Virus record (IMG/VR): IMGVR_UViG_3300045988_107889
Coordinates: 42,257 to 106,256 of that record
Direction: 5' to 3' (one strand)
Length of the DNA stretch: 64,000 nt
Source of the DNA: a virus
Shown here: one piece after another, positions 5,497 through 48,649 of the stretch
How the letters are laid out: every line of letters begins with the position of its first letter
Numbering within the stretch: the first letter of the stretch is position 1
The notes under the pieces: model-generated
What the model was told of the DNA's origin: nothing
What the model saw: the letters and a program-made list of their open reading frames with translations, nothing else
Database searches by the model: none
Translations under genes and position numbers: made by a program

Positions 5497-6219
5497 AGGG
5501 ACAGCTCGAACGGGGCAACCTGTTTTGAGTGGGGCAAAATGAGACATTACAAAATCCAGGCAACCGGATAGCAATTTGACTTTTGCCAAAAAATCTACCA
5601 CTTGACTAACCATTGAGTGGTACGTGCGGATAGCACGCTATACCGCACGGCGTACCTTGAAAACTCAATGCCAGACATTTCCTTTTCCGGCGTGGGGCGT
5701 TTTACCGTATTTATACGGTAAAACCAATGTAAGTTGGTAGCCCTCCTATGTGTAGTGTACTCCGTATTTATACGGATAATACTATCCATGGCACGATTAA
5801 CCAGATTGGGAGATGGTAAAACGTGGCAAGTGCTAAAGGCGCAAGGGTGCAATAAGGCTGGAAACGGCTGGATATTATAGAGGTATCCTATCCTTTTACA
5901 GGATTTACCACTCTGTCGGACGTCCCCAGGGGATAACTATACCCTGGGGAAGAAAGAGGATAAACCGCTAAAACAATAGCGTGCTGGTTGGCACGCCGTG
6001 ACCTGTTATGCGGGGGCGTTGTGGGATGTACCAGGGTGGCCAGAAGGGGAAAAAGACTAATAATCTGGAAACGTCAGAGAAAGATTATTAGCAAGTACCT
6101 GGAATAAAGTTAGCACAACACCGGATGGCGTGGCTTGTTATGAGTGCAGTGACGGTAACAAGCATAGGTCTATAGTTAAGACCTATCAGACGGTGATAAA
6201 ACTCTTACTGGAAAAATCT

Positions 6220-6404: not shown

Positions 6405-7193
6405 ATGAATAACAATGAATTGTTGAAAAAGTACGAATCCACTACCACCACCGACCTGAACAATCAGGTGAAGTCCGCTGTCGAGAAGGCAAACGCCTAT
6501 GCTAAACAGCCCGAACTGAACCAGGTCGAGCTGTTGAAGCTCCGTGCCGATGCCGTTGCTCTGGCAGATGACTATAACCGTCTGGTAAAGCTCCGCCGTC
6601 TGGGCGAGCTGGCCGCCATGTCCTACGGGGACGCCATCAACGCCATGACGGTAGAGGGCGGGGAAACTTGCCCCAAGATGGAAGTGATTCTCGATGGGGA
6701 GATCATGAACATCACCACGTCCAACGCCACCCGTATCCGCTGGAACGAGTTGTTGAAGGCTGGCCAGTGTCCCGACGGTTACGAAAACCTGGAATCCCTG
6801 GTAAAGGTTTTCACCCACAACTGCCTCACCAACAAATTTGAAAAGGGTCAGTTGGTCGAGCTGCCCCCGCTGGACCCCGCTATCAAAGCGGTCGCTAATG
6901 GTCGTGACAACTGGGACTCTGGCTCTATGAATAAGTTGCAGTGCCAGATCCGGGATCTCATCGGCTGGATGTTCCCGGTGGACGAAGTAGGGGAATACTC
7001 TGCTCCTAGAAAGTCTGATGTACGGTGGTTTTCTGACATCGTTTGCCCTGCGAGTGACCGCGCTGGTGAACCTGCCCACTATGTCCAGCGCAAGGTATCT
7101 ACTTTGTTGGACTCCCTGTTCAGAGTGTTCTATACCCTGAAAGAGGAGAAGGAAGTGGTCGTACGGCCTGCAAAAGCTAGCAAGAACCAGTAA
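6405..7193 (+). CDS. hypothetical protein
   Basis: 262-aa ORF. AAAGGAG lies 8 nt before the ATG. Visibly more GC-rich than its neighbours. The long antisense ORF 6240..7079 is judged spurious. Confidence 0.7.
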   Translation: MNNNELLKKYESTTTTDLNNQVKSAVEKANAYAKQPELNQVELLKLRADAVALADDYNRLVKLRRLGELAAMSYGDAINAMTVEGGETCPKMEVILDGEIMNITTSNATRIRWNELLKAGQCPDGYENLESLVKVFTHNCLTNKFEKGQLVELPPLDPAIKAVANGRDNWDSGSMNKLQCQIRDLIGWMFPVDEVGEYSAPRKSDVRWFSDIVCPASDRAGEPAHYVQRKVSTLLDSLFRVFYTLKEEKEVVVRPAKASKNQ

Positions 7194-7360
7194 GTCGTTC
7201 CGGCGACTATAAACAGGCGTTAGGCCGGGAGCGTTCGCAGGTTAGGGCAAGCCCAACCTGCGAGGTCGCAGGAATAACATAGGTGGATTCTGTCTATGCC
7301 TGCAAAAAAAAAGCTACCCTAGCAGTAGCTTGCTAGGGTAGCGGAAGGGTAGGACGCTGT

Positions 7361-8353
7361 ATGAGTAACCATACATATGTAGTCGGTGAATATACCGACT
7401 ATGGTTATAAAGGTGGTGATGGTTTGTATAACGAAGATATTAAGCGGAATTTTTTGGATACGGAATGCAGTAGCTTGAAAAAGCAAAGAGATATTGCGAA
7501 AGTTTTTTCTTCTATCGCGTCGTTTGAGCAAGAGAATGGTCTAGACATCGCTGAAATGGGCAAGAATTTGAGCGCGCAGGCTCTTGAACGTACTGGAATA
7601 AATGAGTATAGTGGAATTAGGAGTTATATTACTAGGTTAAGAGAGTATGCAAGATGGTGCGAAAAAAACAATATCTTCCCATCAATCCCCGGCGGGATTT
7701 TTGAAGTTTCTCCGGACGATGTGGATATTACAGATTCTCTAAAAGGGGTTTTGTTTAAAGACGAATTTGACTTGCTGGAGTCTATTAGATTAGTCCGTGA
7801 CTTTGATTCTGGCTATCCAGAGGTTGCAGCCTTTTGTCTTTACTGGGTCGGTCTTACAAAAGACGAAGCAGTTTTGCTAAAAGACACTGACGTTGACTTG
7901 GAAAACAAGATCGTTTATGTTCATGACGGTATTGTTGCAGAAGACTTTTCGGATGCCATTTGTGATGTATTAAACCGTTACCGTAATTGCAAATGGTCAA
8001 CCCGGGCGAACGGAACTACACTCATGAGCGTTCGCAAGGATTTGTCTGTTGACACATTTCTTAAAAGGATGTTAACAGATGGTTCTAAAAAATTCGGTAT
8101 GCCTGTAACAAAAACACAAATCACAGCACTATGTCAAGATGTGGTGACGGATTGTTCAGCACTTGGTCTCCCTAGTCGTCATACTTTTCAAAACGTCTGG
8201 CGGTGCGGTGGGTTCAATCGTATGTACAAGCTGGAACAATCCGGCGTGGATGTAATGAACCGCCCCACCATAGAAACGGTTTTTCGTGGAAAAAAGAATT
8301 ACTACGATACACTAAGAATGTATCAATATTATAAAAAGGTCTTTGGTTTATAA
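7361..8353 (+). CDS. hypothetical protein, possibly a degenerate tyrosine-recombinase-like fold
   Basis: 330-aa ORF. YWVGLTKDEAVLLKDTDVDL resembles the Arg-I box but lacks the Arg. LPSRHTFQNV resembles the H-x-x-R-H-T box but lacks the first His. Confidence 0.6.
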   Translation: MSNHTYVVGEYTDYGYKGGDGLYNEDIKRNFLDTECSSLKKQRDIAKVFSSIASFEQENGLDIAEMGKNLSAQALERTGINEYSGIRSYITRLREYARWCEKNNIFPSIPGGIFEVSPDDVDITDSLKGVLFKDEFDLLESIRLVRDFDSGYPEVAAFCLYWVGLTKDEAVLLKDTDVDLENKIVYVHDGIVAEDFSDAICDVLNRYRNCKWSTRANGTTLMSVRKDLSVDTFLKRMLTDGSKKFGMPVTKTQITALCQDVVTDCSALGLPSRHTFQNVWRCGGFNRMYKLEQSGVDVMNRPTIETVFRGKKNYYDTLRMYQYYKKVFGL

Positions 8354-11505: not shown

Positions 11506-12171
11506 ATGGCTAAGTATGAGTACGACAAAAGTTATCCCTTCGCTGTTTATATCACGAACCTCGGGAAGTACAACGAGGGCGAGCTTGTGGGCGAGTGGGT
11601 TCACCTCCCCACAACAGCCAAAGAAATGAAGGAGGTGTTCGAGCGTATTGGGATCGGCCAGAAGGATGACTTCGGATGCCCTTATGAGGAGTGGTTTATC
11701 ACGGACTATGACTGTTATGTAACTGACCTTTGTCGGGGGTTCGGCGAATACGAAAATCTGGACGAGCTGAATTACCTGGCAGCAAGATTGGACGAGATGA
11801 GTGATCATGACTTTGAATTGTTCGAAGCGGTTATTGAGACAGGGGACTGCGGCGATTCTGTTAAAGATCTTATCAATCTCGTGGATAACCTGGATAGCTA
11901 TATGGTCTTCTCTAATGTGACCAGCGACTACGACCTTGGATATTACTACATCGAGGAAAGTGGTTGCTATGATACGGACAAGCTTGGCACGCTGGCCAGG
12001 TATATCGACTATGAAAGTTTTGGTCGAGACGTCCGGTTTGAAGAAGGAGGGTGTTTCACTTCCGCTGGATATGTTTTGCATGATGGTTCGAGCTTTACGG
12101 AATACTACGAGGGTGTCGAGGATATCCCCGATGAATATCGGGTAATGACTTTCAAAGAGGAGGATGAATGA
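11506..12171 (+). CDS. ardA: ArdA-family antirestriction protein
   Basis: VYITNLGKYNEGELVGEWVHLP..EEWFITDYD..ENLDELNYLAARLDEM and an overall acidic composition match my recollection of the ArdA family. Confidence 0.75.
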   Translation: MAKYEYDKSYPFAVYITNLGKYNEGELVGEWVHLPTTAKEMKEVFERIGIGQKDDFGCPYEEWFITDYDCYVTDLCRGFGEYENLDELNYLAARLDEMSDHDFELFEAVIETGDCGDSVKDLINLVDNLDSYMVFSNVTSDYDLGYYYIEESGCYDTDKLGTLARYIDYESFGRDVRFEEGGCFTSAGYVLHDGSSFTEYYEGVEDIPDEYRVMTFKEEDE

Positions 12172-13315: not shown

Positions 13316-13391
13316 ACCAGCATAGTTTTAAATGGGAAAACAACGGTCTCCAAAACCGTAGTTCTAGGTTCGAGTCTTAGTGCTGGTGCCA
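13316..13391 (+). tRNA. tRNA-Trp(CCA)
   Basis: Acceptor ACCAGCA/TGCTGGT. Anticodon stem ACGGT/ACCGT with loop CTCCAAA. T arm CTAGG-TTCGAGT-CTTAG. GCCA end. Confidence 0.8.
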
Positions 13392-13797
13392 CGTGCAAGT
13401 TTAATTGCACGGTGTGTAGTGTGAAAAAAGTCATATATTGCTCTATGTATATAACCTCACGGCGTAAAAGAGGTTGACTGTCTGACCGCAGTTATTCCAG
13501 TGCAATTCTGGTTGCCGTACACGCTGCTCAAAGCGGGTGAAGAGGTGTGGCACACTCCTTCCGTGCCTCACTTATGACTTCAAGGCGGTGCAATTCCGCC
13601 TAGCAGCTCTCAATCGCTCTAGTTAACTGGTTCTGGGGCGAGGGTCAAAACCAGCAACCTAAACATTGATTGCAGACACCTGGTTAAGTACAGGCTAGGC
13701 AAGAAAGCTCTCAGGCACGGTTGGGCAACACAATCCAGCCCTATCCTTTGGTTAGGCCGACTGATTGATAGGGCGGTTGTGGTTGCTGAACAAATAT

Positions 13798-13888
13798 CTC
13801 CCTGTAGCTAAATTGGTTATAGCTTCCAACTTATAATTGGAAGGCCCTCATAAGGTATATGGTGATTCGAATTCACCCAGGGAGACCA
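13798..13888 (+). tRNA. class II (long variable arm) tRNA with UAU anticodon
   Basis: Acceptor CTCCCTG/CAGGGAG. D arm GCTA-AATTGGTTA-TAGC. Anticodon stem TCCAA/TTGGA with loop CTTATAA. 19-nt variable region. T arm GGTGA-TTCGAAT-TCACC. ACCA end. Confidence 0.7.
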
Positions 13889-13939
13889 CGATACCACGAT
13901 AAAAATCTAATTCCATAAATAAGAAAGTGAGGAACTAAT

Positions 13940-14593
13940 ATGAACAAAGAAACTATGACCGTCCATAAAGCTCTTGCGGAGCTGAAAATTTTGGACGCTA
14001 GAATTTTCAACGCCACTTCTGGCAAAACATTTGTCGCCGCGAAGAAGGTGAGCGACAAAAAGATCGGCGGTGTGTTGGTCGAAACCCTCAAGAAGGATAT
14101 GAAGTCTGATTATCAGTCTGTTACGGACTTGATTGCTCGTCGGACTGCCATTAAGAGAGCAGTTGTGCTCTCTAATGCCAAAGCTAAGGTAGTAATTGGT
14201 GGTGAGACCTATACTGTGGCAGAAGCTATTGAAATGAAGAACCATGGCCTCATGGCAAAGAGAGACTTGCTGGATGTAATGGTTCGGCAGTATGAAAAGG
14301 CTCGTGCCGAGGTCGCCAAACACGAAGGCGAGTGGATTGAAGCGAAAGCCGAGCAATACATTATGAATTTCCTTCAGTCGCAGCCCAAAGAGGCCAAGAC
14401 AACCAAGGATTCTGAGGTCGTTAAGCGGTTGAGAGAAGAGTATATTGCCAACAATACGTATGAACTCATTGATCCGCTTGACATTGGTAATGAAATCAAG
14501 GTTTTGAGCGATTGGATTGACGCGTTTACTGCGGATGTAGATTCTCAGCTGTCTGTGTCCAATGCGACCACTACAATCACCGTAGAATACTAA
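13940..14593 (+). CDS. hypothetical protein embedded in the tRNA operon
   Basis: 217-aa ORF with GTGAGGA upstream of the ATG. The antisense ORF 13907..14698 is rejected. Confidence 0.7.
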   Translation: MNKETMTVHKALAELKILDARIFNATSGKTFVAAKKVSDKKIGGVLVETLKKDMKSDYQSVTDLIARRTAIKRAVVLSNAKAKVVIGGETYTVAEAIEMKNHGLMAKRDLLDVMVRQYEKARAEVAKHEGEWIEAKAEQYIMNFLQSQPKEAKTTKDSEVVKRLREEYIANNTYELIDPLDIGNEIKVLSDWIDAFTADVDSQLSVSNATTTITVEY

Positions 14594-14600
14594 AATAATC

Positions 14601-14943
14601 AACTTGCTGCAACCCGAAAACCTAAAACGGTAACCCATCGTGCTGACGGCACTTGGTTCGATGTAAAAATGAACAAATATGTGCCAACTACAAGGCAAAC
14701 TTGAAATTTTGTGCTTGTAAAAAGATTGGGCGGTTAATCCAAATCTCTTATAAAAAGAAGATATTTGCTGTAAAGCTCAAATTTCAAAGCTCGAATTTCA
14801 AAATTCAAGGCTCAAAGATCTTCAGAAGATTAAAGTTCAAGGGTCAACGTTCAATGGTTAAAGTTTTACAAAATCCTGGGTTAATGGTTTGGGTCAGTTA
14901 TCAACGCCCACGGGTCAACCACCAGGCTGGGTTGTAGCAAGTT
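14601..14943 (+). ncRNA. candidate structured RNA domain closed by a 15-bp helix, with internal TTCAA-rich degenerate repeats
   Basis: AACTTGCTGCAACCC (14601-14615) pairs with GGGTTGTAGCAAGTT (14929-14943); 14 Watson-Crick pairs plus one G-U that works only on the plus strand. Lies immediately 5' of tRNA-Leu. Confidence 0.35.
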
Positions 14944-14949
14944 CAATAT

Positions 14950-15034
14950 GCGGGATTGGCGGAATTGGTAGACGCATCGTGTTTAAGTCTCGATGTCGAA
15001 AGACGTAGGAGTTCGAGTCTCCTATCCCGTACCA
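14950..15034 (+). tRNA. tRNA-Leu(UAA)
   Basis: Acceptor GCGGGAT/ATCCCGT. Anticodon loop TTTAAGT. Variable arm GTC-GAAA-GAC. T arm AGGAG-TTCGAGT-CTCCT. ACCA end. Confidence 0.8.
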
Positions 15035-15183
15035 AAGAAAAGCCCATAGTTTGCGGACTATGACACCTGAAAAGTGGCGGTTTGCTTCTGGTAGACCGTA
15101 GTAGTGTGTTGACATCCTGGAAGAGACAGGAGTTCCCCTTTTTGATCCCCCTTACATAGCTACCCCGCTTTGCGGGGTAGCGT

Positions 15184-15259
15184 GGCCGATTAGTTTAAAT
15201 GGTAAAACGGCGGATTTGTACCCCGCAGATGTCGAGTTCGAGCCTCGCATTGGCCTCCA
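15184..15259 (+). tRNA. tRNA-Thr(UGU)
   Basis: Acceptor GGCCGAT/ATTGGCC. Anticodon stem GCGGA/CCCGC with loop TTTGTAC. T loop TTCGAGC. TCCA end. Confidence 0.75.
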
Positions 15260-15260
15260 T

Positions 15261-15334
15261 GCTACTATAGTTTAATGGTTGAACGGTTGTTTCGTAAGCA
15301 ACAGGTTCCAGTTCGATTCTGGGTAGTAGCTCCA
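15261..15334 (+). tRNA. tRNA-Thr(CGU)
   Basis: Acceptor GCTACTA/TAGTAGC. Anticodon stem GTTGT/GCAAC with loop TTCGTAA. T arm TCCAG-TTCGATT-CTGGG. TCCA end. Confidence 0.8.
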
Positions 15335-15337
15335 TAT

Positions 15338-15412
15338 CTGGGTGTAGCGCAATGGAAGCGCTCCTGATTTGGGATCAGGAGGTTGTCAGTTCGAGCCTGA
15401 CCACTCAGACCA
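15338..15412 (+). tRNA. tRNA-Pro(UGG)
   Basis: Acceptor CTGGGTG/CACTCAG. Anticodon stem CCTGA/TCAGG with loop TTTGGGA. T arm GTCAG-TTCGAGC-CTGAC. ACCA end. Confidence 0.8.
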
Positions 15413-15414
15413 AT

Positions 15415-15489
15415 GCAGGCGTAGTTCAACGGCTAGAACACCGGTCTTCCAAACCGGAAACGCGAGATCGGCACTCGTCGCCTGCTCCA
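15415..15489 (+). tRNA. tRNA-Gly(UCC)
   Basis: Acceptor GCAGGCG/CGCCTGC. Anticodon stem CCGGT/ACCGG with loop CTTCCAA. Atypical T loop ATCGGCA. TCCA end. Confidence 0.75.
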
Positions 15490-15595
15490 TATCAAGCAAC
15501 AGAAAACGATTCTCCTACCTGTTATTGTTGATAAATCACCTCCTTTCTTTACATAGCCTGGAATGGCGTTAAACTCTGCTCTGCTTGATTTATAT

Positions 15596-15669
15596 AGCGC
15601 CGTAGCATAACGGTAATGCAACGGACTTTGACTCCGTAAACGGTAGTTCGACACTATCCGGCGCTGCCA
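15596..15669 (+). tRNA. tRNA-Gln(UUG)
   Basis: Acceptor AGCGCCG/CGGCGCT. Anticodon stem ACGGA/TCCGT with loop CTTTGAC. T arm GGTAG-TTCGACA-CTATC. GCCA end. Confidence 0.8.
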
Positions 15670-15727
15670 CGTTCGTTTTATACGGACACTTGCTTTCATT
15701 AACCGGCGGTACCACCGCCGGTAACAT

Positions 15728-15812
15728 GTGGGCGTGATGTAATTGGCAAACATGCGAGATTTAGGTTCTCGTGTCGAAAGATGTGCGGGTTCGAACCCCG
15801 TCGCCCACTCCA
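15728..15812 (+). tRNA. tRNA-Leu(UAG)
   Basis: Acceptor GTGGGCG/CGCCCAC. Anticodon stem CGAGA/TCTCG with loop TTTAGGT. Long variable arm. T arm GCGGG-TTCGAAC-CCCGT. TCCA end. Confidence 0.8.
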
Positions 15813-17170: not shown

Positions 17171-17202
17171 GTTAATAATACATGAAAAAAGGAGTACATA
17201 AC

Positions 17203-17592
17203 ATGGAAATTATCGTATGTGGTAACGCAGTAACGCTCAAGAGTGCTTTCACTCTTGAAGAAATCAATCGCGCAGCTCTGTATCGGCCTAAGTCTGTACA
17301 GCTGCTGGACGAAGATGGCAACGCACTGTTTTACACTCTCGCTGGCGAGAGAGGAGTAGTAGCACCGACCGGTATTATCTATGAGGCTGAGTCTTGTGAT
17401 GGCTCTGGTCGTGCGGTCGTAACAGTGAGTCTTATTACCGAAGCTGACCGTTCCGTACGTGAGGTTGTTGCCGAGAGATATGCTTCTGTTATCGAGAAGG
17501 TAGAAAAGATTGAAGCCCAGGTGCGCGAAGCGCTGGAAGAGATCGACGTTATGATGGCACGGGTCAGTTCCAAGATCGTAGTAGCTGGCTAA
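17203..17592 (+). CDS. hypothetical protein ending ...KIVVAG (cassette gene 1)
   Basis: Start trimmed to the ATG at 17203, 8 nt after AAGGAG. 129 aa with a C-terminal coiled segment and a terminal Gly. Confidence 0.65.
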   Translation: MEIIVCGNAVTLKSAFTLEEINRAALYRPKSVQLLDEDGNALFYTLAGERGVVAPTGIIYEAESCDGSGRAVVTVSLITEADRSVREVVAERYASVIEKVEKIEAQVREALEEIDVMMARVSSKIVVAG

Positions 17593-17633
17593 AACAAATA
17601 AGCATAGATGTAATAACAGAAAGGAAGTATAAC

Positions 17634-17873
17634 ATGATTATTGTTAATGTTCGTAGCACCACCCGGCGTTTTGATGGTCAGGCTGTAGATGAGAGCGTGG
17701 AAACCCCTCGTTCTCTGTTCGAGAAGATCGGAATTGAGTGCAGCCGTAGCGTAAATTCTCTTTCCGGCACGATTCTGACGCCTGATGATATGAGTTGCAC
17801 TTTTGCCGAACTTGGTGCCGCTGGTGTTTGTACTCTGAGTGCTATTGTTAAGGCGCAAGGTAACGCGATCTGA
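17634..17873 (+). CDS. small protein, candidate ubiquitin-like beta-grasp modifier (cassette gene 2)
   Basis: 79 aa, starts MIIVNVR and ends AIVKAQGNAI. Sits in a JAB/E1 neighbourhood. The fold is not verifiable by eye. Confidence 0.6.
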   Translation: MIIVNVRSTTRRFDGQAVDESVETPRSLFEKIGIECSRSVNSLSGTILTPDDMSCTFAELGAAGVCTLSAIVKAQGNAI

Positions 17874-17999
17874 TTCGAGTTAGCACAATCTACGAGGCCG
17901 GACAATGTCCGGCCTCGTACATAACACAGTGAGTTGCTGGGAGGGCATTCGGTTACGTCGGATGACCTGCCAAGAGTTCATAAAGAAAGGAGAAGATAT

Positions 18000-19415
18000 A
18001 TGTTTTCAAATTGTTTGAAGCGCAGTGAAGTTTTAGTGCTGGCCCCAGAGCTGGAGTCTGAGTTTTCTAATATTGCTGGCGACGGGACGTTCAAAGGCGA
18101 TGACTTTGCGTTGGCAATGGCTCGGTTGTTTTTGAAGCCAAGAGTTCCGGCGGACGTGTGCATCACGGTTAGAGTGGTGGATTCTAATTGTGCTGATTGG
18201 ATTACGTGGATAAAAGACAAAGAGCGTTTTTCGGAGGTGACTTCTCAAGACAACACAATTACATTTTGCGTGTGTGATAAGGTTAAGGCCGTAGAAACTT
18301 TAGTCAGTAATATGAAATGTGCGAGCAGTTGGAAAGAGAAGACGGCAAGAGAGCTGAATCTAATGAAAGAACGACTCGGTATCATACTGAGAATTTTCAG
18401 TAATGAAGAGAGGAAGAGTACGGTTGTCCTTACCGACGTGGATAACTATGGCTCGTGGCATTACCTAGTGTGTCTTTTCAATGTATTCTGCCCATGGTAC
18501 ATTAAAGACAGGACTGAAGCGGAGTCAAAGTTTATTAAGATTCTGTCCAAAGAAGACTCCGGCATGAGTGTAATCTGTAAAGCGATGAACGATATGGTTG
18601 CCGCTGCTGTGGACGTGGCCTCAGCTAAAAAGAGATATTACCTTTATGGCTATGAGGGAAAGCTAAGGAACGTACAGAGGGAAAGATACACAAAGAAGAT
18701 GGAGAGTGCAAGAAGTCAGATCAATAAATTGACGTCCGATTTGAGAGATTGGTATAGAGAATACGAAGGTTGGTCTTTGTTGGTGGCAGCAATTGACAAC
18801 AGTAATGTTGAGAGCAAGAACGAGTTAATGGATTATTTTCTGTCGAACAAAAATGTGTCTGTTGAGAGCGGTGACAAAGATGGGAATATCGTATATGTTG
18901 TAACTGGTTATATGACACTGTTTGATCCAGAGATTGCGAGAGAGTACATCAACAATTGGTCGTCGATTTTTTATACGCAGTCTTCGTATGCGGGCCTGAC
19001 AGAAAGTGATACTAAAAAGTTAATGACAGGGATTTTCATTGACTCTGATATCAAAGTAAGAATGTGTTCCGCATGGAGACTTTCTTTCGGAGGAGGGGTA
19101 CTACCCATCGTGGCATATGGGTATGGCTGTGAATACAACAGCTATCTCCCCAACACACACCTTGATAAATATGGTTGCATGGGGAGCTGGCAACAGGCGT
19201 TAGAGAAATCTTGCGACAAATGTGACTACGTTTATACGGTAGACACGACGTGTGCCGAAAGCGGGAATCTGAATCTTAGTGATACTGTCGTATTGAGATC
19301 ATTCCTTGAAGAGTTGTTGAGAGAAGGCGCTGTAGTATTGGAGTTGCCGGATGGGCGAGTAGTTAATTACATCGACGCAATTAAATGGATAAAGGAGAAT
19401 AAGAGCAATGAATAA
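18000..19415 (+). CDS. hypothetical 471-aa protein with an E2-like LPNTH..GC loop near the C-terminus (cassette gene 3)
   Basis: Start trimmed to the ATG at 18000 after AAAGGAG. LPNTHLDKYGCMGSW is encoded at about 19146-19190. Confidence 0.65.
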   Translation: MFSNCLKRSEVLVLAPELESEFSNIAGDGTFKGDDFALAMARLFLKPRVPADVCITVRVVDSNCADWITWIKDKERFSEVTSQDNTITFCVCDKVKAVETLVSNMKCASSWKEKTARELNLMKERLGIILRIFSNEERKSTVVLTDVDNYGSWHYLVCLFNVFCPWYIKDRTEAESKFIKILSKEDSGMSVICKAMNDMVAAAVDVASAKKRYYLYGYEGKLRNVQRERYTKKMESARSQINKLTSDLRDWYREYEGWSLLVAAIDNSNVESKNELMDYFLSNKNVSVESGDKDGNIVYVVTGYMTLFDPEIAREYINNWSSIFYTQSSYAGLTESDTKKLMTGIFIDSDIKVRMCSAWRLSFGGGVLPIVAYGYGCEYNSYLPNTHLDKYGCMGSWQQALEKSCDKCDYVYTVDTTCAESGNLNLSDTVVLRSFLEELLREGAVVLELPDGRVVNYIDAIKWIKENKSNE

Positions 19416-20094
19416 GGCAACTAATGCAACGGATTTGTTGGCTGCGACAAATCCGTGCAAAATCGTATACAGTAAGAAGGCATGGATGAAGACGTGTTTG
19501 CTTGTTATGAATAGGAATCTTGAGGTTGGATGGCACGGAGTTGCAAGAAGGTTGGAAAATCCAGCTGAGTTTATCGTGGAGGACGTCTTGGTATTCCCCC
19601 AGAAGGTCACGTCGGCAAGCACCGAACCTGAAGATGCGGACTATGTGAACTGGCAGGATTCTCTTAACACGGAAATATTCAATAAGGTTCGGTTGTACGG
19701 GCATTCTCATGTGAACATGGGTGTCAGTCCATCTTCTACGGATATAAAGTATAGAGCAGATTTGCTGACAGACGTTGATGATTTCTACGTCTTTCAGATT
19801 TTCAATAAGAAAGGCTACATATCCTCACAGGTTTATGATGTTAGAGAAGGCATCCTGTACGAAAGCGACAATGTGGAACTCGCAGTGGAACGATGGAACC
19901 CCGCTGTATATGATTTGTGCAGAGGGTTTTTCGATAACATTGACCGGTTTGAGAAGGTGGACGTGCGTGATGTACAGGATGGAATCGAGTGGATCATGAA
20001 CGCAGCATCCGAGTTTGAAAAATTCATGGAGGACGCAGATAAAATTATTGATGAGCGGCCCGATTGGCGTGACGGTAAGATGTTAATTAAGTAA
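19408..20094 (+). CDS. JAB/MPN (JAMM) metalloprotease
   Basis: GHSHVNMGVSPSSTD gives H-x-H-x7-S-x2-D, with upstream acidic EFIVEDV. ATG overlaps the end of the previous gene. Confidence 0.8.
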   Translation: MNKATNATDLLAATNPCKIVYSKKAWMKTCLLVMNRNLEVGWHGVARRLENPAEFIVEDVLVFPQKVTSASTEPEDADYVNWQDSLNTEIFNKVRLYGHSHVNMGVSPSSTDIKYRADLLTDVDDFYVFQIFNKKGYISSQVYDVREGILYESDNVELAVERWNPAVYDLCRGFFDNIDRFEKVDVRDVQDGIEWIMNAASEFEKFMEDADKIIDERPDWRDGKMLIK

Positions 20095-20135
20095 AAAACA
20101 TATGTGCCTGTACAGATATGTTAAATTACATATCA

Positions 20136-20155
20136 CTCTTGTCGGAACGAGGGAG
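20136..20155 (+). promoter_or_regulatory. conserved CGGAACG hairpin, copy 2
   Basis: CTCTTGTCGGAACGAGGGAG, compared with CTCTTACCGGAACGGAAGAG (22753-22772) and CTATTTCCGGAACGGGATAG (16836-16855). Confidence 0.45.
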
Positions 20156-20267
20156 TAACAAATGGCTGTGTCGCTTCAAAAGTTTTCCGCTCTGGGAGTA
20201 GGAAAACTTTTTGAACTTAAACAGCTGGTTAGCTGTTCAGAGGTACATAAGAAAGGAGAAGACCGGT

Positions 20268-20609
20268 ATGGAGGTATATTGTGTGATAACAGAAACAGAC
20301 CAGGGTATTGATTTATCCGGTGTTTATTGGAATTTGGAGAGTGCGGTAGAACACGTGAAACGTAGGTTTTATTCAGTGTTTCAAGAATACGTCGATGATG
20401 GATGCGAAATGATTGAAGGTGACAATTTTAATGCTCCAGATAAATACGGCGCGACAATTTATCTGGAACCGGACGACTATTGGATTTGGCGTGTTTACTT
20501 TGGCGAAGTAAGAGATGAGTGCCTGGTGAGTGGGCCGAACGAAGTGGTGCCGCCGCTAGAAGGGAAGCGTGTTGACGAAGAGACGCTTATGAATTGTTTG
20601 CTGCTATAG
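20268..20609 (+). CDS. CLLL-tail paralog 1
   Basis: ATG at 20268 after AAAGGAG. Ends VDEETLMNCLLL. Confidence 0.7.
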   Translation: MEVYCVITETDQGIDLSGVYWNLESAVEHVKRRFYSVFQEYVDDGCEMIEGDNFNAPDKYGATIYLEPDDYWIWRVYFGEVRDECLVSGPNEVVPPLEGKRVDEETLMNCLLL

Positions 20610-20616
20610 AGGTGAT

Positions 20617-20958
20617 ATGATGTTTGAACTTGGGCAGAAAGTTACGCTTGCCCCAAAGTCATGGGATGAATTTCGGGGTGCTTTAATGGAGTTGTTTGCG
20701 AGAGAGATGATAGTAGATGAATTCTCAACTACTCATAAAGAAATGATATTGGTTACAGGGGTGCTTTATGGGGAAGGCGATTCTTGGTTTAACGACCTTC
20801 TAATAAATGGAGGTGAGATTATCAAGTGCTATGCTACTGGTTGGTATATGGTGAATATAAATGGAGTAAAACTGAAATTTCACGAAAGCGTGTTGTGTCT
20901 GAAAGAAGACATGAGGTCAGTTGATGAAAAATTGTTCATAAGTTGCTTATTATTGTGA
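20617..20958 (+). CDS. CLLL-tail paralog 2
   Basis: 113 aa with GAGGTGA upstream. Ends VDEKLFISCLLL. N-terminus ELGQKVTLAPKSWDEF. Confidence 0.75.
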   Translation: MMFELGQKVTLAPKSWDEFRGALMELFAREMIVDEFSTTHKEMILVTGVLYGEGDSWFNDLLINGGEIIKCYATGWYMVNINGVKLKFHESVLCLKEDMRSVDEKLFISCLLL

Positions 20959-20967
20959 GGTGATATA

Positions 20968-21300
20968 ATGTTTAGACCTGGGCAGCGGGTTGAGCTTATT
21001 CCCAAAACGTGGGATGAATTTAATGATAACTTACGGGCGGTATTTCCGAATGGAGCTGTGTCGCAGAGCGTAGACATCATCACAAACGAAAGATTTATAT
21101 ACGCCGACGATGTGATGTACGCGGAGGGCGATCCTTACCTCAGAGAGTTTATAAGAGACGGCGGCGAGATCGTTGAGTATGAACTTGGCGGTTGGTACAG
21201 GATAAGGGTTAGCAAAAAAGAGATGTCTTTCTATAAAAGTGTGTTGCGGTTAAAGCAATCTATTGATGAGCAGGTTTTTATGAACTGTTTGTTGTTGTGA
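20968..21300 (+). CDS. CLLL-tail paralog 3
   Basis: 110 aa with GAGGTGA upstream. Ends IDEQVFMNCLLL. N-terminus RPGQRVELIPKTWDEF. Confidence 0.75.
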   Translation: MFRPGQRVELIPKTWDEFNDNLRAVFPNGAVSQSVDIITNERFIYADDVMYAEGDPYLREFIRDGGEIVEYELGGWYRIRVSKKEMSFYKSVLRLKQSIDEQVFMNCLLL

Positions 21301-21584
21301 TAAGAGGTGGCGCTTTGAATATCGTAGCTGGTCAGAAATTTAGAGTTAAAAAGTGGTCAGAAAGCAATTCTGACCGCTTTTTTACCAGTAGCCATGAAAA
21401 GTATTGCGGGAAAACATTAACGGTGAGAGAAAAAGGTATACATAGAGGTGTGAGCGGTTACGTTCGCCCGATAATTTGGGCGTACGAATGTAGAGAGGTC
21501 GTGTGGTTTTCATGGATGATAGAACCTATTGAGGACCGCCGTCGTGTTAATGAAAATCTGTTTCTAAGCTGCTTGTTGTTGTAG
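21297..21584 (+). CDS. CLLL-tail paralog 4
   Basis: GTG at 21297 in a GTGA overlap; alternative TTG at 21315 after AAGAGGTGG. Ends VNENLFLSCLLL. Confidence 0.7.
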   Translation: MIRGGALNIVAGQKFRVKKWSESNSDRFFTSSHEKYCGKTLTVREKGIHRGVSGYVRPIIWAYECREVVWFSWMIEPIEDRRRVNENLFLSCLLL

Positions 21585-21591
21585 GTGATGT

Positions 21592-21933
21592 ATGAAATTT
21601 GAAGATATGTATGTTGGGCAAAAGATTAGGGTACGGACTTTAGACGACATGGTATCTGACCCTGATTTAACGTATAGACTTGATAAGTCTTTTAAAGTAG
21701 CGACGATCAGGTCTAAGGATAATACAACTCATTTGAGCTTAATTCGTAAGACAATGCGTTATTGTGGTACAGCTGTGACGGTGTTCTCATTAACAGAAAA
21801 TCTTGCACCAACAGAGTGGAGGCATGTTTATATAGAAGAAGATAATCAATATTACCCATGGGAGTCTTGGATGTTTGAACCGATTGAAAGTAAGGTTGAT
21901 AGTGATGTATTCTTGAGTTGTTTAATGTTATGA
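21592..21933 (+). CDS. CLLL-tail paralog 5 (CLML)
   Basis: 113 aa with TAGGTGA upstream. Ends VDSDVFLSCLML. Confidence 0.75.
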   Translation: MKFEDMYVGQKIRVRTLDDMVSDPDLTYRLDKSFKVATIRSKDNTTHLSLIRKTMRYCGTAVTVFSLTENLAPTEWRHVYIEEDNQYYPWESWMFEPIESKVDSDVFLSCLML

Positions 21934-21946
21934 GGAGGCATGAAAA

Positions 21947-22615
21947 ATGAATTTGTCGAAGAGTATTGAGTTCTTTAACCCCACAAAGGTCAAAGAAAGA
22001 GTACATATCATCGGCTGTGGCGCGTCCGGTTCCACTGTAGCCGAATTGTTGGCAAGAGCTGGGCTTGAGAAGGTTACTCTGTACGATTTTGACAAGGTTG
22101 AGTCGCACAATATCGCGAATCAGATGTTCAATGATAGCGACATCGGTAGAAATAAAGCTGAAGCCGTGAAAGATATGATGTTAAGTATCAATCCTGATGC
22201 AAATGGTATTGAAGTAGTTCAGGAGGGGTATACCAACCAGCGTCTGTCCGGCTATGTCTTCCTTATGGTGGACAACATTGATCTCCGCAGAAAAATTTGC
22301 GAAGAAAATGCTAGAAACCCGTATATCAAAGCTGTGTTTGATACCAGACTTCGGCTGACGGACGCGCAACACTTTGCGGCTGACTGGAGTTCTAGTGCGA
22401 TGGTTGAAAATCTGATTAACTCCATGCAGTTTACTCAAGAGGAAGCTCTGGCTGAAACTCCTCGATCTGCATGTAACCTGGAGCTTAGTATCGCTCCTTC
22501 CGTGCGGATGATTTGCTCTTGTGCAGTAGCAAACTTCATGAATTTTGTGAATGGGCGTTCGATCAAGAAGATAGTTTTGATCGACGCCTTTGATTTTACT
22601 ATGGAAGCATATTAA
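21947..22615 (+). CDS. ThiF/MoeB/E1-like adenylyltransferase (adenylation domain only)
   Basis: VHIIGCGASGSTVAELL Rossmann loop, DFDKVESHNIANQ, GRNKAEA, MVDNIDLRRKI. GAGGAGG lies 8 nt before the ATG. Confidence 0.8.
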   Translation: MNLSKSIEFFNPTKVKERVHIIGCGASGSTVAELLARAGLEKVTLYDFDKVESHNIANQMFNDSDIGRNKAEAVKDMMLSINPDANGIEVVQEGYTNQRLSGYVFLMVDNIDLRRKICEENARNPYIKAVFDTRLRLTDAQHFAADWSSSAMVENLINSMQFTQEEALAETPRSACNLELSIAPSVRMICSCAVANFMNFVNGRSIKKIVLIDAFDFTMEAY

Positions 22616-22729
22616 ATATTAGTTGTTTGAGGTGGAAATTTCGTGTCGCCACGCGCCTTAATGGCTAAAGAGATGCAGGGGAATGGCACGCCTGCTAACA
22701 ACCAATTCAATCTAAATATCTGAAAGCAC

Positions 22730-22772
22730 TTTCTATTTAAAAAAAATAGAAACTCTTACCGGAACGGAAGAG
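22730..22772 (+). promoter_or_regulatory. conserved two-hairpin element, copy 3
   Basis: TTTCTAT-loop-ATAGAAA then CTCTTACCGGAACGGAAGAG. Compensatory changes relative to copy 1. Confidence 0.5.
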
Positions 22773-23060
22773 TGGCACATCGTCCGAAAGAGGAACCCCG
22801 CTGCGTGCGATAGCAAACCAATACTTGGTGCCCTCCAAGAAGGCTTAACACCCCGGTGGCATCTTCTCTGATGAGAAGCATCGCCCGAACAACAGGAAAA
22901 ACCAGAAGGATATTCGTTCGACAGGTTCAACATCCGCCACCAGCAGGGGTATCCGGCAAACAATAAACGCCAAGTCAGGGATTTCACCGTCTCAGACGAC
23001 GACAAGCTCCGCGATGAGCATCTCGTACTGACATCCAAATCCATATATAGTTTCAGATAA
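22773..23060 (+). ncRNA. T-poor leader R2 upstream of the RT, candidate RT-associated ncRNA
   Basis: 460-nt gap between the E1 and RT genes with no plus-strand ORF. Local hairpins, e.g. CTTCTC-TGAT-GAGAAG. Shares blocks with R1. Confidence 0.4.
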
Positions 23061-23076
23061 AAGCAAGGAGAATAAT

Positions 23077-24243
23077 ATGATTTATGTAACAGCAAGAATT
23101 ACAGAGCCGTATAAGCAGATTTCTTTAGAGGATATTATGTCTGCGCTGCTTCAAGATAAACATGTGAGGGAATCGAGATCTCTATATACTAGAACAGTTA
23201 CATATGAGAGACTGCCCGAGAGAATCCTGGCAGGGTTTGACACGGGGAAAAAGATTGAGCTGCTGAGAGCATTTAACAAAAAGCATCAGGAACTGCTTGA
23301 AAGCGATCTTCATACGCATTACCACAAGTTTTTTATCCCGAAAAAGAGCGGCGGCATGAGAGAGATTAACGCGCCGGACGACGAGCTGATGAATTGTCTG
23401 CGAGAGCTAAAACTGCTGTTAGAATCTGAGTTTTATGCGAGCAGCCACGCCGCTGCGTACGCTTATGTCAAAAACAGAAGCAGTGTAGATGCAGCAAAAG
23501 TCCATCAGTGGAACAAGAGTAAGTGGTATTTAAAGACTGACATCAGCGGTTTCTTTCCCAACACTACTCCAAAGTTTGTATGGAACGCGCTGTCTACAAT
23601 TTATCCGTTCTGTCTCATTATGGAGCACAAGAACGGGAGAGAGGAGCTTAAAAAAGCTCTGTCGCTCTGTTTCTTAGACGGCGGCCTGCCTATGGGGACA
23701 CCGATCAGCCCGATGCTGACCAACCTGATTATGATTCCATTTGATTTTGAGTTCAGTAAGTTTCTGCGCAGCCTACAGGACCCAGCGAACAGCCCTGATA
23801 GAAAGGGTAGAAGGTTCGCGTATACCAGATATGCTGACGACATGAATATTAGCTGTGGTATTGAATTTGATAAGGGGTTTATTATTAGAAAGATTGAAGA
23901 GCTATTTAGGCTGTTTGGAGCTAGTTATATCATTAAAGACGAGAAGACTCATTACGGCCCGTCGTATCATAAGAATTGGGTACTCGGTGTGATGATCAAC
24001 AAGGACAACCAGATCACGATTGGGTATAAGAAGAAGCGCAACTTCGAGGCGATGCTTTTCAATTACGCGAAGGACAGAAAGAGCGGAACTTATTGGCCTC
24101 TTGAGCAACTGCAATATGTGCTCGGTCTTATGAGCTACTATCGAATGGTTAACAGAGGAAGTATTGATGGAGTTATCACTCGCTATAGTCAGAAGTTTGG
24201 CTTTGATATTGAAGCCACGATGAAGAAGGATCTCAAAAACTAA
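23077..24243 (+). CDS. reverse transcriptase, retron/Abi-like class
   Basis: FFIPKKSGGMREINAP (RT1-2), LKTDISGFFPN (motif A), GLPMGTPISPMLTN (motif B), YTRYADDMNIS (YADD), and NWVLGVMINKD, which resembles the retron VTG region. No maturase or endonuclease domain. Confidence 0.85.
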   Translation: MIYVTARITEPYKQISLEDIMSALLQDKHVRESRSLYTRTVTYERLPERILAGFDTGKKIELLRAFNKKHQELLESDLHTHYHKFFIPKKSGGMREINAPDDELMNCLRELKLLLESEFYASSHAAAYAYVKNRSSVDAAKVHQWNKSKWYLKTDISGFFPNTTPKFVWNALSTIYPFCLIMEHKNGREELKKALSLCFLDGGLPMGTPISPMLTNLIMIPFDFEFSKFLRSLQDPANSPDRKGRRFAYTRYADDMNISCGIEFDKGFIIRKIEELFRLFGASYIIKDEKTHYGPSYHKNWVLGVMINKDNQITIGYKKKRNFEAMLFNYAKDRKSGTYWPLEQLQYVLGLMSYYRMVNRGSIDGVITRYSQKFGFDIEATMKKDLKN

Positions 24244-45717: not shown

Positions 45718-47664
45718 TTGGATAATTATGTTGCATATCATGTTCACAGCGACTATTCGCTGCTGGACTCGACGACAGATTTTAACCTTTACATAGAGAA
45801 GGCAAAGCAGCTTGGGCAGAAGGCTATTTGCTTCACCGAGCATGGCAACATCCGTGGATGGGTTGCCAAGAAGATGGCTTGTGATGCAGCAGGTATCAAG
45901 TATCTGCATGGCGTGGAGATTTATTTAACGGAGTCTCTGCAGGAGAAAGTGAGAGACAACTACCACACAATTCTGATAGCGAAGAACCGGCAAGGTTTTT
46001 TGGAACTCAATAAGTTGCTCAGTATGTCAACAGATGAGGACCATAAATACTATGTTGGACGGCTTTCATTTGATGAGTTTTTGAATATCTCTCCGAATAT
46101 TATCAAGACGTCCGCTTGTTTGGCTTCACCGCTGAACAAGCTGGACGTAAGTCACCCGTACTACGAGAAGCTCGTAAAGAAGTATGACTACCTTGAGATC
46201 CAACCGTACGATTGTGAAGATCAGATTGTCTATAACAGACACTTAGCAGCGCTGTCTCAAAGGTATAACATCCCTTTGATTGCGGCAACAGACACGCACA
46301 GTATCGACCAATACTACGCTGAGTGCCGGTCATTACTTGCTTATGCAAAGAGTAGGCATTATGACACGGAAGATGATTTTGATCTAACGTATAAGTCGCG
46401 CGAGGAATTGGAAGAAGCATTTAGAAAGCAGGACGCTATCCCAGAAGAAGCATGGCAGGCCGCGATAGACAATACAGTCTTGATGGCAAATCAGGTTGAG
46501 GAGTTTGAATTAGATACTTCTTTGAAATACCCAATCCTTTATGGGTCTGCAGAAGAAGATAGAGAAAAATTTATCCAGAATATTAACGAAAAGCTAGAAG
46601 CAAAGTTAGAGGCCGGAATCATCCCAAGAGAGCAAGAGCAAGCGTTCCGAGACGCAATTAAAGAAGAGCTTAGAGTATTCACAAAACTTGGGATGTGCGG
46701 GTTCATGCAATCTATGAGCGAGATCCTTACATGGTGTCATGAGAATGGAATTGTAACAGGTCCTGGGCGTGGCAGTGTAGCTGGGTCAAGAGTTGCTTAT
46801 GTGACAGATATTACAGATGTTAACCCGGAAACATGGCATACGGTATTTAGCCGCTTTTGCAATGAGGACCGAATTGAAGCAGGCGATATCGACACAGACG
46901 TTATTGAAGATGACCGCCCTAAGATCTTTAATTACATTATTGAACGATTCGGGCAACAGAAGACTGCGTTCGTTCCATCATGCGGCACATTAAAAGGCTT
47001 GGCGACTATCGAAGAGATTGTGCGTGGGTTCAGACATAAATGGGCAGAGCAACATCCGGAAGCGGACAAAAACGAAAATCCATATCCAGTAAGTCTAGCG
47101 GCAAAGATTAAAGCAGATTACGGAAAGGACGCAGAAACGTGCAGAGAGAGATACAAAGAAACGTTCTATTATTTTGATGGGTTCCTGAATACAAGAGTAT
47201 CACAATCTGTACATCCGGCTGGCATTGTGATCAGCCCTGTTACATTAGATGATAACTATGGCGTTTTTCACCACAAGGATAGCGGTATCGTACTTCAGAT
47301 TGACATGGAAGAAATCCATGAGGTGTCTCTCGTTAAGTACGACATGCTTGTTCTAAGTACGTTACAAATTATTCGTGACGCTTGCAAACTAGCAAACATC
47401 CCATACCCGAAGTCACATGAAATAGATTGGGGTGACCAAAAGGTTTGGGAAGACATGATGGTTTCCAATATCGGCATCTTTCAGATGGAATCTCCCTTTG
47501 CAGGAAAGATGCTAAAGGACTTCAACACGAAGTCAATCTTTGATATGTCGTTGGTGACTGCGTGTATTCGCCCGTCTGGCGCGTCGTATAGAAATGATTT
47601 GATAAGTAGAGTTCCACATCATAACCCGTCGCCAATGATTGACGAGTTGCTTTCGGACAACAAT
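45718..47664 (+). CDS. dnaE: DNA polymerase III alpha subunit, exon 1
   Basis: TTG start 7 nt after GGGAGGAGG. PHP domain YHVHSDYSLLDS..CFTEHGN. The frame reads into intron sequence after ..LLSDNN. Confidence 0.8.
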
Positions 47665-48649
47665 GGATTAGAGATAGTCCCGGTGCATAGTAATATGCGC
47701 TTGCAAACCCATTGAATTGCTGGAAACCCCTTAGAGCTATATTCGCCACAACGTAATTTTGAAACAAAGATAAGCGTGATGGTTTGAAAAGAATGTAGAT
47801 TGGGCAATCAGCAGCCAAGTCTCGAACAGAGAAAGGTTCAACGACTATTGCGTATGCAAGTAGGACCGCAAGCGATCGGCGGTTCGAAGCGGTGGGCATC
47901 CGGATAAAAACGGATGAAGATATAGTCTACGCTCTATCGAAATGGTAGAGAATAGTTTAGCGAACTAAGTGCTATGTAAATAAATTATGAAGGAGGTGAA
48001 TGTATGTATCAATTAAAAGGGAAACAGTTTGGAAGACTGTTGGTAGTCGATAGAGCTGGTAGCGATAAGGCAAAAAACGCAACGTGGCGTTGCCGATGCG
48101 ACTGTGGCAAAGAAAAAGTAGTGTCAAGCCGTAACCTAATTGCCGGAGACACTCGTTCATGCGGGTGTCTTCAAAGAGAGCTAGTTAAAGAAAGAATGAC
48201 GACACATAAAGCGTCGAAAACAAGACTGTATCGTGTGTGGGCTGGTATTAAAAACCGTTGTTACAATAAGAATTCTGAAAACTATAAGTATTATGGCGGG
48301 AAAGGCATTGCGGTATGCGAAGAATGGCGAAATGATTTTACGGCGTTTTCAGAGTGGGCAATCGAGAATGGATATAACGAGTACGCGGCCACACAAGAAT
48401 GTACAATTAACAGGATAGATAACTCAAAAGATTACTGCCCGTCGAATTGTAGGTGGTCTAACCATACATCACAATGCAATAACCAATCAAGCAATAAACT
48501 GTTTACTTACAATGGCGAAACATTAACCATGGCAGAATGGGACAGAAGAACGGGAATAAAATACACGACGTTAAGAGCTAGAATCCGTCGAGGCGTCCCG
48601 TTCGAAGAGGCGATTAAGATGAAAGAGATACATAGCACATAATAAAACG
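47665..48649 (+). mobile_element. group I intron in dnaE (boundaries approximate)
   Basis: Classical elements: P AATTGCTGGAAA (47715-47726), Q AATCAGCAGC (47806-47815), R GTTCAACGACTAT (47836-47848), S AAGATATAGTC (47917-47927). U precedes the 5' splice site and G ends the intron. Joining gives ..SDNN-DLIYQEDTIKF.., like the DnaE YQEQ region. Confidence 0.8.
48004..48642 (+). CDS. intron-encoded homing endonuclease, HNH_3-like
   Basis: 212-aa ORF after GAAGGAGGTGA. YRVWAGIKNRCYN...INRIDNSKDYCPSNCRW...QCNN. Paralog of 57645..58295. Confidence 0.7.
   Translation: MYQLKGKQFGRLLVVDRAGSDKAKNATWRCRCDCGKEKVVSSRNLIAGDTRSCGCLQRELVKERMTTHKASKTRLYRVWAGIKNRCYNKNSENYKYYGGKGIAVCEEWRNDFTAFSEWAIENGYNEYAATQECTINRIDNSKDYCPSNCRWSNHTSQCNNQSSNKLFTYNGETLTMAEWDRRTGIKYTTLRARIRRGVPFEEAIKMKEIHST

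Follow-up and report, generated by a model that had tools for sequence, protein, structure and literature searches.

Prokaryotic operons that combine a ThiF-type E1 activating enzyme, a JAMM metallopeptidase and a small ubiquitin-like protein (Ubl) are represented by type II cyclic-oligonucleotide-based antiphage signaling systems (CBASS; Cap2/Cap3), Bil (BilA-D), Bub (6E/DUF6527) and the archaeal SAMP/UbaA/JAMM1. We analyzed a module with the same three components on a 64,000-nucleotide stretch of viral DNA (positions 42,257 to 106,256 of IMG/VR record IMGVR_UViG_3300045988_107889; this whole stretch is hereafter "the window"), in which the JAMM and E1 genes are separated by an array of five small genes whose products, P1 to P5, end in the same kind of 12-residue C-terminal tail. 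Compared to the bacterial Ubl-E1-JAMM operons, the module is phage-encoded, its E1 is a bare protein of 222 residues without a fused E2 or JAMM, it has no recognizable E2, most orthologues of its candidate Ubl end in ...DNA rather than GG, and it is linked to a reverse transcriptase (RT). In none of the systems listed above is there an array of non-Ubl proteins sharing a tail. Overall, the array represents a family that is new and restricted to one clade, attached to a phage version of this known operon kind. The tail is separable from the bodies that carry it, always terminal, selected at the protein level, and limited to a single locus in that clade. The tail is on balance probably a recognition peptide for one common partner, and we tentatively, and with distinctly more doubt, propose the adjacent Ubl machinery as that partner.

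The five genes run back to back on the forward strand at 20268–21933. They are tightly packed, each behind a ribosome-binding site (for P1, AAGGAG, 8 nt ahead of its ATG start at 20268), and a check of the open reading frames (ORFs) of the window found each of them ending in the tail and then directly in a stop codon, exactly as an earlier note on this DNA had described. For P4, the start may be the in-frame TTG at 21315 rather than the GTG at 21297, i.e., an 89-residue protein beginning MNIVAGQKF... like its homologues P0045 and P0071. The tails in the window follow the pattern [VI]-[DN]-[ES]-x-[VLT]-[FL]-[MLI]-[NS]-C-L-[LM]-L-stop, with pairwise identities of 42–75% versus 14–35% for the bodies. 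Across the 64 distinct tail-bearing proteins recovered in the searches described below, the consensus reads [RK]-[SRK]-[VI]-D-[ES]-x-[VLT]-[FL]-[ML]-[NS]-C-L-[LM]-L-COOH: the Cys is the fourth residue from the C-terminus in 64 of 64, and the proteins end in CLLL, CLML or CLSL. The tail had been called invariant in the earlier note; while it is indeed well kept across all 64 proteins, only the Cys and the Leu residues at positions −3 and −1 are strictly so among the five encoded here. It contains no Gly and, ending in C-L-[LM]-L, has neither the Gly-Gly nor the small-residue terminus of ubiquitin-like modifiers. The tail is absent from the ends of all other ORFs in the 64-kb window, and zero chance matches to its degenerate DNA pattern are expected from shuffles of the window. 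The invariant residues are encoded by two to four synonymous codons each (TGT and TGC for Cys; TTG, TTA, CTG and CTA for Leu), and all three stop codons occur after the tail among the copies in the window and 17 further copies from related contigs. This synonymous codon variety indicates that selection on the tail acts at the protein level.

Next, we compared the bodies that carry the tail, which by sequence and modeling fall into at least two types, one alpha/beta (P1) and one weakly SH3-like (P2–P5). The type A body of P1 has an alpha/beta sequence pattern, lacks the GQ motif of the other four, and ends in ...EVRDECL, followed by a variable Pro-rich linker and then by the tail. Type A homologues (here and below, P followed by four digits denotes a recovered protein, and L a related locus) are at least 66% identical to P1, and P0059–61 among them have neither linker nor tail. 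Types B (P2 and P3) and C (P4 and P5) have in common an N-terminal GQKVxV...W element. The GQ(K/R) element noticed in four of the five proteins by the earlier note is therefore present as stated, but its description of all five as paralogs holds for P2–P5 only, since a comparison of the P1 and P2–P5 sequences detected no homology outside the tail. Two body types without detectable homology to each other therefore carry a common tail, and type A also exists in tail-less form.

An AlphaFold2 model of P2, built on a 33-sequence alignment, is confident for residues 1–95 (predicted local distance difference test, pLDDT, ~90) and places the tail in a helix at residues 100–111 with pLDDT 55–61. A low-confidence terminal helix points to an appendage, and not to the buried structural strand that the earlier note had named as a finding that would count against its proposals. 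The modeled topology is all-beta and SH3-like, with two additional helices, and is not a beta-grasp. When compared by Foldseek, the model most resembled SH3, Tudor and Mind-bomb repeat domains, although weakly (best E 0.06); nothing fell below E 0.05 in PDB and BFVD, and no neighbor was a beta-grasp. Scans of the five proteins against Pfam, PHROGs and PADLOC yielded no family except a weak match of P5 to phrog_17705 (E 0.0023), and sequence-profile searches of PDB for type A and for types B/C found no relatives of solved structure. In an annotated phage collection, blastn of the region returned one irrelevant match and tblastn of P5 none. Remote tail-less homologues of type C match phrog_7488 (E down to 6e-22) or phrog_17705, both of unknown function, and match Pfam SH3_15 below its curated cut-off; it was the exhaustive profile search described below that tied types B and C to proteins matching phrog_7488. 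Unlike the array members, these phrog_7488 and phrog_17705 homologues have no tail, often consist of multiple repeats, and lie outside any E1/JAMM context.

We then evaluated where tail-bearing proteins occur, through word-seeded searches of 5.8 billion proteins, an exhaustive hidden Markov model (HMM) search of 1.84 billion cluster representatives, and a scan for the DNA pattern of the tail across 241 million metagenome records. Everything recovered by the word-seeded searches was closely related to the array proteins (45 relatives of types B/C, 17 of type A), while the HMM search added ~10 more remote type C relatives without a tail, including the multi-repeat proteins P0074, P0078, P0080 and P0083. 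Two such tail-less relatives had usable genomic context (L044 and Bacteroides phage DAC16), and no E1, JAMM, Ubl or 471-residue protein homologue was found near either; for P0078 and P0082, the contigs were too short to reveal any neighbors. Tail-bearing genes were placed from IMG/VR, from the contigs of protein-database matches, and from the metagenome DNA-pattern scan, and all those that could be placed on a contig fall between the JAMM and E1 genes of a single narrow clade of uncultivated gut phages (E1 ≥91% identical). Homologues lacking both the tail and E1/JAB neighbors, which the earlier note had anticipated as evidence against its proposals, thus exist for type C, but the tail-bearing subfamily itself was found nowhere else in these searches. 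A single type C relative from a more distant phage (P0079, in L043) also lies in the JAMM-E1 gap and has the related tail SFDWDAFKNMLGI, whose end, NMLGI, carries Met in place of the Cys; the E1 of this phage is ~70% identical, as judged by eye over 114 residues. No description of these proteins or of their tail was found in the literature or in the family and structure databases searched.

Within the clade, turnover of the array is rapid. Genomes carry 0 (L041), 1 (L003), 2 (L002) or 5–6 (the window, L001, L038, L039 and L065) copies. In L002 and L003 (positions 5652–6023 in each), independent single-base changes in homopolymers, i.e., T5 to T6 in L003 and an extra A in L002, have deprived the last paralog of its tail, and the new end ...FELFNAIGRYENEFVEEY overlaps the start of the E1 gene. 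Such frameshifted forms are frequent among protein-database entries.

Table 1. Array genes and the surrounding Ubl-E1-JAMM-RT module, in window coordinates.
Feature	Length (residues)	Coordinates	Strand	Remarks
136-aa conserved protein	136	17182..17592	+	Homologue forms the C-terminal half of Ubl fusions elsewhere
Ubl candidate	79	17634..17873	+	Ends ...IVKAQGNAI; conserved in the module
471-aa conserved protein	471	18000..19415	+	ORF open from TTG at 17934
JAMM/JAB metallopeptidase	228	19408..20094	+	Upstream flank of the array
P1	113	20268..20609	+	Type A body; linker VSGPNEVVPPLEGKR; tail VDEETLMNCLLL, codons 20571-20606
P2	113	20617..20958	+	Type B body, GQKVTL...SWDEF; tail VDEKLFISCLLL, 20920-20955
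P3	110	20968..21300	+	Type B body; tail IDEQVFMNCLLL, 21262-21297
P4	95	21297..21584	+	Type C body, GQKFRV...WFSWMIEPIE; tail VNENLFLSCLLL, 21546-21581
P5	113	21592..21933	+	Type C body, GQKIRV...YCGT..TV...WESWMFEPIE; tail VDSDVFLSCLML, 21895-21930
ThiF-type E1 adenylation domain	222	21947..22615	+	Downstream flank of the array; Pfam PF00899 5e-24, above cut-off
Skipping-rope RNA motif RF02924		22622..22702	+	50.3 bits versus gathering score 36.7
Retron-type reverse transcriptase	388	23077..24243	+	Pfam RVT_1; PADLOC RT_II-A 6e-41

Under the reading we prefer, the array would represent fast-turnover accessory genes inserted in a phage ubiquitin-like conjugation operon. Each product would combine a small variable binding domain with a common short linear motif of 12 residues, acidic at its start and ending in a free carboxylate, and this tail would plug every member into one receptor, with the bodies acting as interchangeable adaptors or cargo. 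If the receptor were the E1, the JAMM, the 471-residue protein or the Ubl itself, the array would provide substrate adaptors or presented substrates. Recognition of a free C-terminus fits with the stop codon always falling three residues past the Cys. We favor the Ubl machinery as the partner because both body types gained and kept the tail in this operon and because the L043 member lies in the same gap, and we consider a docking peptide more likely than a Ubl-like tail for the E1 since a separate upstream gene encodes the probable Ubl partner of this E1. The alternative offered by the earlier note, in which members of a diversified family carry a degron or a peptide for docking on a partner, fits the evidence and is the one favored here. 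By analogy only, diversified bodies with a short terminal docking element are also known from F-box and SOCS-box proteins, from poxvirus ankyrin-PRANC arrays, and from the C-terminal clamp-binding tails of phage T4 and RB69 proteins. These families often form tandem, fast-evolving viral arrays as well, but none of them shows a sequence relationship to the array described here, whose tail is 12 residues long.

Several observations weigh against this reading, and especially against the Ubl machinery as the partner. Co-occurrence with E1 and JAMM within one narrow clade amounts to a single evolutionary event, and as such provides no independent support. A close relative (L041) has no tail-bearing gene, just a tail-less type A copy, and the last paralog is frameshifted and tail-less in many genomes (P0018–P0029 and P0072). 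Ubl, JAMM and E1 are kept by ~50 loci without any tail-bearing gene, mostly with the JAMM gene abutting the E1 gene, i.e., the E1/JAMM module does not need the array genes. In other clades, the JAMM-E1 junction holds unrelated genes: very acidic MTREEF... proteins (L016 5509–5985, L019 5401–5982 and L027 5486–5983), a homologue of the DNA polymerase III beta-clamp with an acidic protein after it (L058 6531–7995), or a lipoprotein-like DUF5052 protein (L006 5685–5987). The junction thus behaves as a variable cargo slot, and the position of the array may reflect a mere insertion hotspot. Finally, the assignment of the bodies as SH3-like is weak, its model-based matches falling below significance.

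Nearly as likely as a partner within the Ubl machinery, although still doubtful, is a host one: the tail may act as a C-terminal degron or docking tail for a host hub or protease, in which case the bodies would be short-lived early proteins, or adaptors dragging host targets to the hub. Known tags of this type include ssrA (...NDENYALAA), which directs proteins to ClpXP, the HslU tail (EDLSRFIL), which inserts into HslV, and the beta-clamp motifs QL[SD]LF and QLxLxL. An acidic start and a non-polar end at a fixed distance from the carboxylate are typical of such degrons and clamp or protease docking tails; this likeness, together with the unrelated cargo that occupies the same accessory slot elsewhere (including the L058 beta-clamp homologue), is why we rank a host hub so close to the Ubl machinery. 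The independence of the E1/JAMM module from the array, and a rapid change in copy number reminiscent of host-interaction gene arrays, point in the same direction. However, the resemblance to characterized degrons and clamp motifs is one of character, with no match at the sequence level, and a host hub leaves unexplained the strict linkage to the operon, which extends to the distant L043 member. For a clamp encoded by the phage itself, neither a clamp gene nor another protein with a similar C-terminus was found in the window. A partner may also be provided by the paralogs themselves, if the tail were a self-association helix through which they form homo- or hetero-oligomers, i.e., a multivalent complex of binding domains. 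The predicted helicity of the tail, its very hydrophobic end and the probable co-expression of several copies would suit such an assembly, as would the short amphipathic segment, following a ...WMFE(P/D) strand, with which single-domain remote homologues also end. We nevertheless judge this unlikely, as 12 residues are short for a stable bundle, some genomes have a single copy or none, and the fixed distance between the Cys and the C-terminus would have no explanation.

The earlier note had itself suggested that the E1 or JAMM uses the five proteins as alternative modifiers or substrates, for instance with JAMM removing CLLL or LLL and E1 adenylating the exposed Asn/Ser (or Cys). The genes do adjoin those of both enzymes in the same orientation, and position −5 of the tail is N, S, D or G, the class of residue that precedes the terminal Ala or the extension in Ubl orthologues, whose mature end is probably ...[N/S/G]-A. 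There are also precedents for E1-like or JAMM enzymes acting on C-termini other than Gly-Gly, namely MccA/MccB, QbsE/QbsD and CysO/Mec+: JAMM-type trimming at Cys-led residues is known for QbsE (...GG-CF) by QbsD and for CysO-Cys by Mec+, and the E1-like MccB acts on the C-terminal Asn of MccA. The likeness to these pairs is limited, however. MccA has 7 residues, the last of them Asn, while P1–P5 are folded proteins of 95–113 residues ending in Leu, and MccB has an extra N-terminal clamp domain that is absent from the 222-residue E1 of the window, a bare adenylation domain whose Pfam ThiF match spans residues 17–218. In QbsE and CysO, which have the beta-grasp fold, GG precedes the residues that are trimmed, while P1–P5 have no GG and the modeled P2 is not a beta-grasp. 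With two unrelated body types, and an SH3-like topology for the one that was modeled, the tail is the only part that the E1 could recognize, and the module already has a Ubl candidate of its own. In addition, the CLLL to be discarded is the most invariant part of the tail and the proposed mature end is variable, which is the opposite of what would be expected from a trimmed pro-peptide; the LLL or LML end is bulky compared to the small residues of the module's Ubl; the L043 relative has Met for the Cys; tail-less and frameshifted variants persist; and E1s 48–62% identical from clades without the array show no sign of an altered role. Taken together with the ~50 array-free loci, this weakens the suggestion to the point where we regard it as improbable. 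A slightly less probable version would have the tail serve as a portable "activation handle", by which E1 adenylates these non-beta-grasp proteins, with or without JAMM trimming, and ligates them to targets; the modifiers of such a phage tagging system would be a range of SH3-like and other small domains.

Two further readings carry very little weight. CLLL and CLML resemble a CaaX box in having Cys at −4, aliphatic residues, and a terminal Leu (64 of 64), the CaaL pattern of geranylgeranylated GTPases; Rac1, for one, ends in CLLL. If so, the Cys would be lipidated and the proteins sent to the membrane. However, the setting is a bacterial virus whose hosts are gut bacteria, CaaX prenylation of bacterial proteins being known only via a eukaryotic host, and protein-family scans of ~20 window proteins revealed nothing resembling a prenyltransferase. 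The motif also extends over 12 residues, with eight conserved upstream residues that a CaaX box does not need, and the L043 relative has Met, so that we find lipidation hardly credible. Still less probable is a conservation imposed on the nucleic acid, i.e., a DNA or RNA repeat, or a U/G-rich leader for translational coupling. The stops do lie directly before ribosome-binding-site-like GGTGAT or GGAGG, and Leu codons are mostly UUG or UUA, but two to four codons per invariant residue, three different stops and an amino acid pattern maintained over 12 codons effectively refute such an origin. The nearby RT had also raised the idea of a variable region of a diversity-generating retroelement; this was rejected because the RT is of the retron type and because the tails vary at synonymous sites, a variation that is not template-driven.

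If the preferred docking reading is correct and the tail docks on the phage Ubl machinery, the array would supply candidate substrate adaptors, the first of their kind in any prokaryotic or viral Ubl system; to our knowledge, target choice in these systems has so far been attributed to the E2 or E1 alone. The 12-residue peptide would then also provide an experimental handle on what the Ubl machinery binds. Even with a host hub or protease as partner, the tail would be a natural example of a short linear motif moved onto unrelated folds in a phage. The activation handle, if real, would represent the first E1-driven conjugation of modifiers without a ubiquitin fold, operating beside a classical Ubl.

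The module that surrounds the array is found in ~50 gut-phage loci, may be a larger prize than the array, and may merit a separate study. Its gene order consists of a ~130-residue protein, a Ubl candidate of ~75–84 residues, a protein of ~440–530 residues, JAMM, E1 and a retron-type RT, which lies between a few hundred and a few thousand bases past E1. This order is held in nearly all related loci (window 17182–24243, L001–L034, L038–L043 and L045–L061). E1 homologues 47–62% identical were identified in 34 IMG/VR loci and 18 contigs of metagenome-assembled genomes (MAGs), plus one outlier at 27%. The MAGs with the module are mostly binned as gut Clostridia, and these bins are what suggests gut Clostridia as the host. 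The combination of Ubl, 471-residue protein, JAMM, E1 and retron-type RT was not found described in the literature searched.

The two enzymes flanking the array correspond to the JAB and E1 between which the earlier note had placed it. The upstream protein has the JAMM motif E39...H99-S-H101-x7-S109-x2-D112, with E...HSH-x7-S-x2-D invariant across 25 orthologues, and its profile matches Rpn11 (E 5e-4), although the single sequence has no Pfam match. JAMM proteins of the array-bearing clade are the shortest, with 228–232 residues, when compared to the orthologues in L004–L034 and L043. Those of most other clades carry a C-terminal extension of 50–140 residues in which Tyr, Gly, Asp and Trp are abundant (e.g., ...YGYGYGYGYNY). 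Downstream, the E1 has its closest PADLOC match in the E1 part of CBASS Cap2 (3e-17), in addition to its Pfam ThiF match, the extent of which leaves no room for an extra peptide-clamp domain. Across 42 orthologues, it keeps GCGxxGS, DFD, VDNIDxRR, and a conserved Cys175 in TPxSACN. The same 42 orthologues conserve N-I-A-N-Q, with Asn in the usual Arg position: the motif of ThiF/MoeB-type enzymes is normally N-x-x-R-Q.

The 79-residue protein upstream is probably the cognate substrate of E1 and JAMM, a call based on its size, synteny, C-terminal residues and fusion architecture. Its orthologues end in ...VVKADNA(A) or ...GA, and some exactly in ...KAYGG or ...PSIGG. In at least five loci (L006, L011, L013, L014 and L050), the Ubl candidate is fused in frame to a homologue of the ~130-residue protein (...VVKADNA-AYIKIAG...), an arrangement that resembles a precursor from which JAMM would release the Ubl. 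A small-residue C-terminus and an occasional fusion precursor make the protein comparable to the Bub precursor BubAB, which is cleaved by the JAMM domain of BubCD (PMC11601596). The candidate can be aligned to ubiquitin in register, although not with statistical significance; likewise, neither hhalign comparisons to ubiquitin, ThiS and MoaD nor a profile search of PDB gave a significant match, and an AlphaFold2 model from an 8-sequence alignment (pLDDT 57) was unusable, which leaves the beta-grasp fold unconfirmed. In the 471-residue protein, the only invariant residues are His409 and Cys415, within a P-N-x-H-x5-C-x-G motif, and its Asn-to-Cys spacing (N-x7-C) equals that of the HPN...C motif in canonical E2s. 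No match to this protein was found in Pfam, PDB or PADLOC. As a candidate E2, it was negative in hhalign against UBE2D2.

The RT follows E1 in nearly all related loci. In the window, a skipping-rope RNA motif begins 7 nt past the E1 stop, upstream of the RT gene, and the motif also occurs in L001, but it was not detected in the 10 more distant loci scanned. This RNA may be the partner RNA of the RT, and distant loci may carry other RNAs in the E1-RT gap. In L024, a DUF3800-XI RNA was detected elsewhere in the locus.

Beyond the module, the window has two integrase-like genes and an anti-restriction-protein-like gene (7361–8353, 11506–12171 and 62341–63540; PHROG matches), alongside genes for a DNA polymerase, NrdD, a primase-helicase and an NAD-dependent ligase; from this gene set, a temperate lifestyle is possible for the ~107-kb phage. 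A cluster of tRNA genes, nine in all (Trp, Ile-tat, Leu x2, Thr x2, Pro, Gly and Gln), occupies 13316–15812 on the forward strand, shortly upstream of a ParB-like gene and of the Ubl module. In a related phage (L008 11327–11745), the tRNA cluster includes the phage's own transfer-messenger RNA (tmRNA), for which an unusual tag peptide, AVEDTPEKQFSL, is predicted. At 7193–7270 (+), immediately after the ORF at 6405–7193 and ahead of the integrase-like gene at 7361–8353, there is a pistol self-cleaving ribozyme (RF02679, 66.9 bits). Finally, two group I introns (RF00028) were identified at 47639–47950 and 57319–57610 (+), and since the start of the first one falls within the 3′ end of the ORF for the DNA polymerase (45718–47715), the polymerase gene is probably split.

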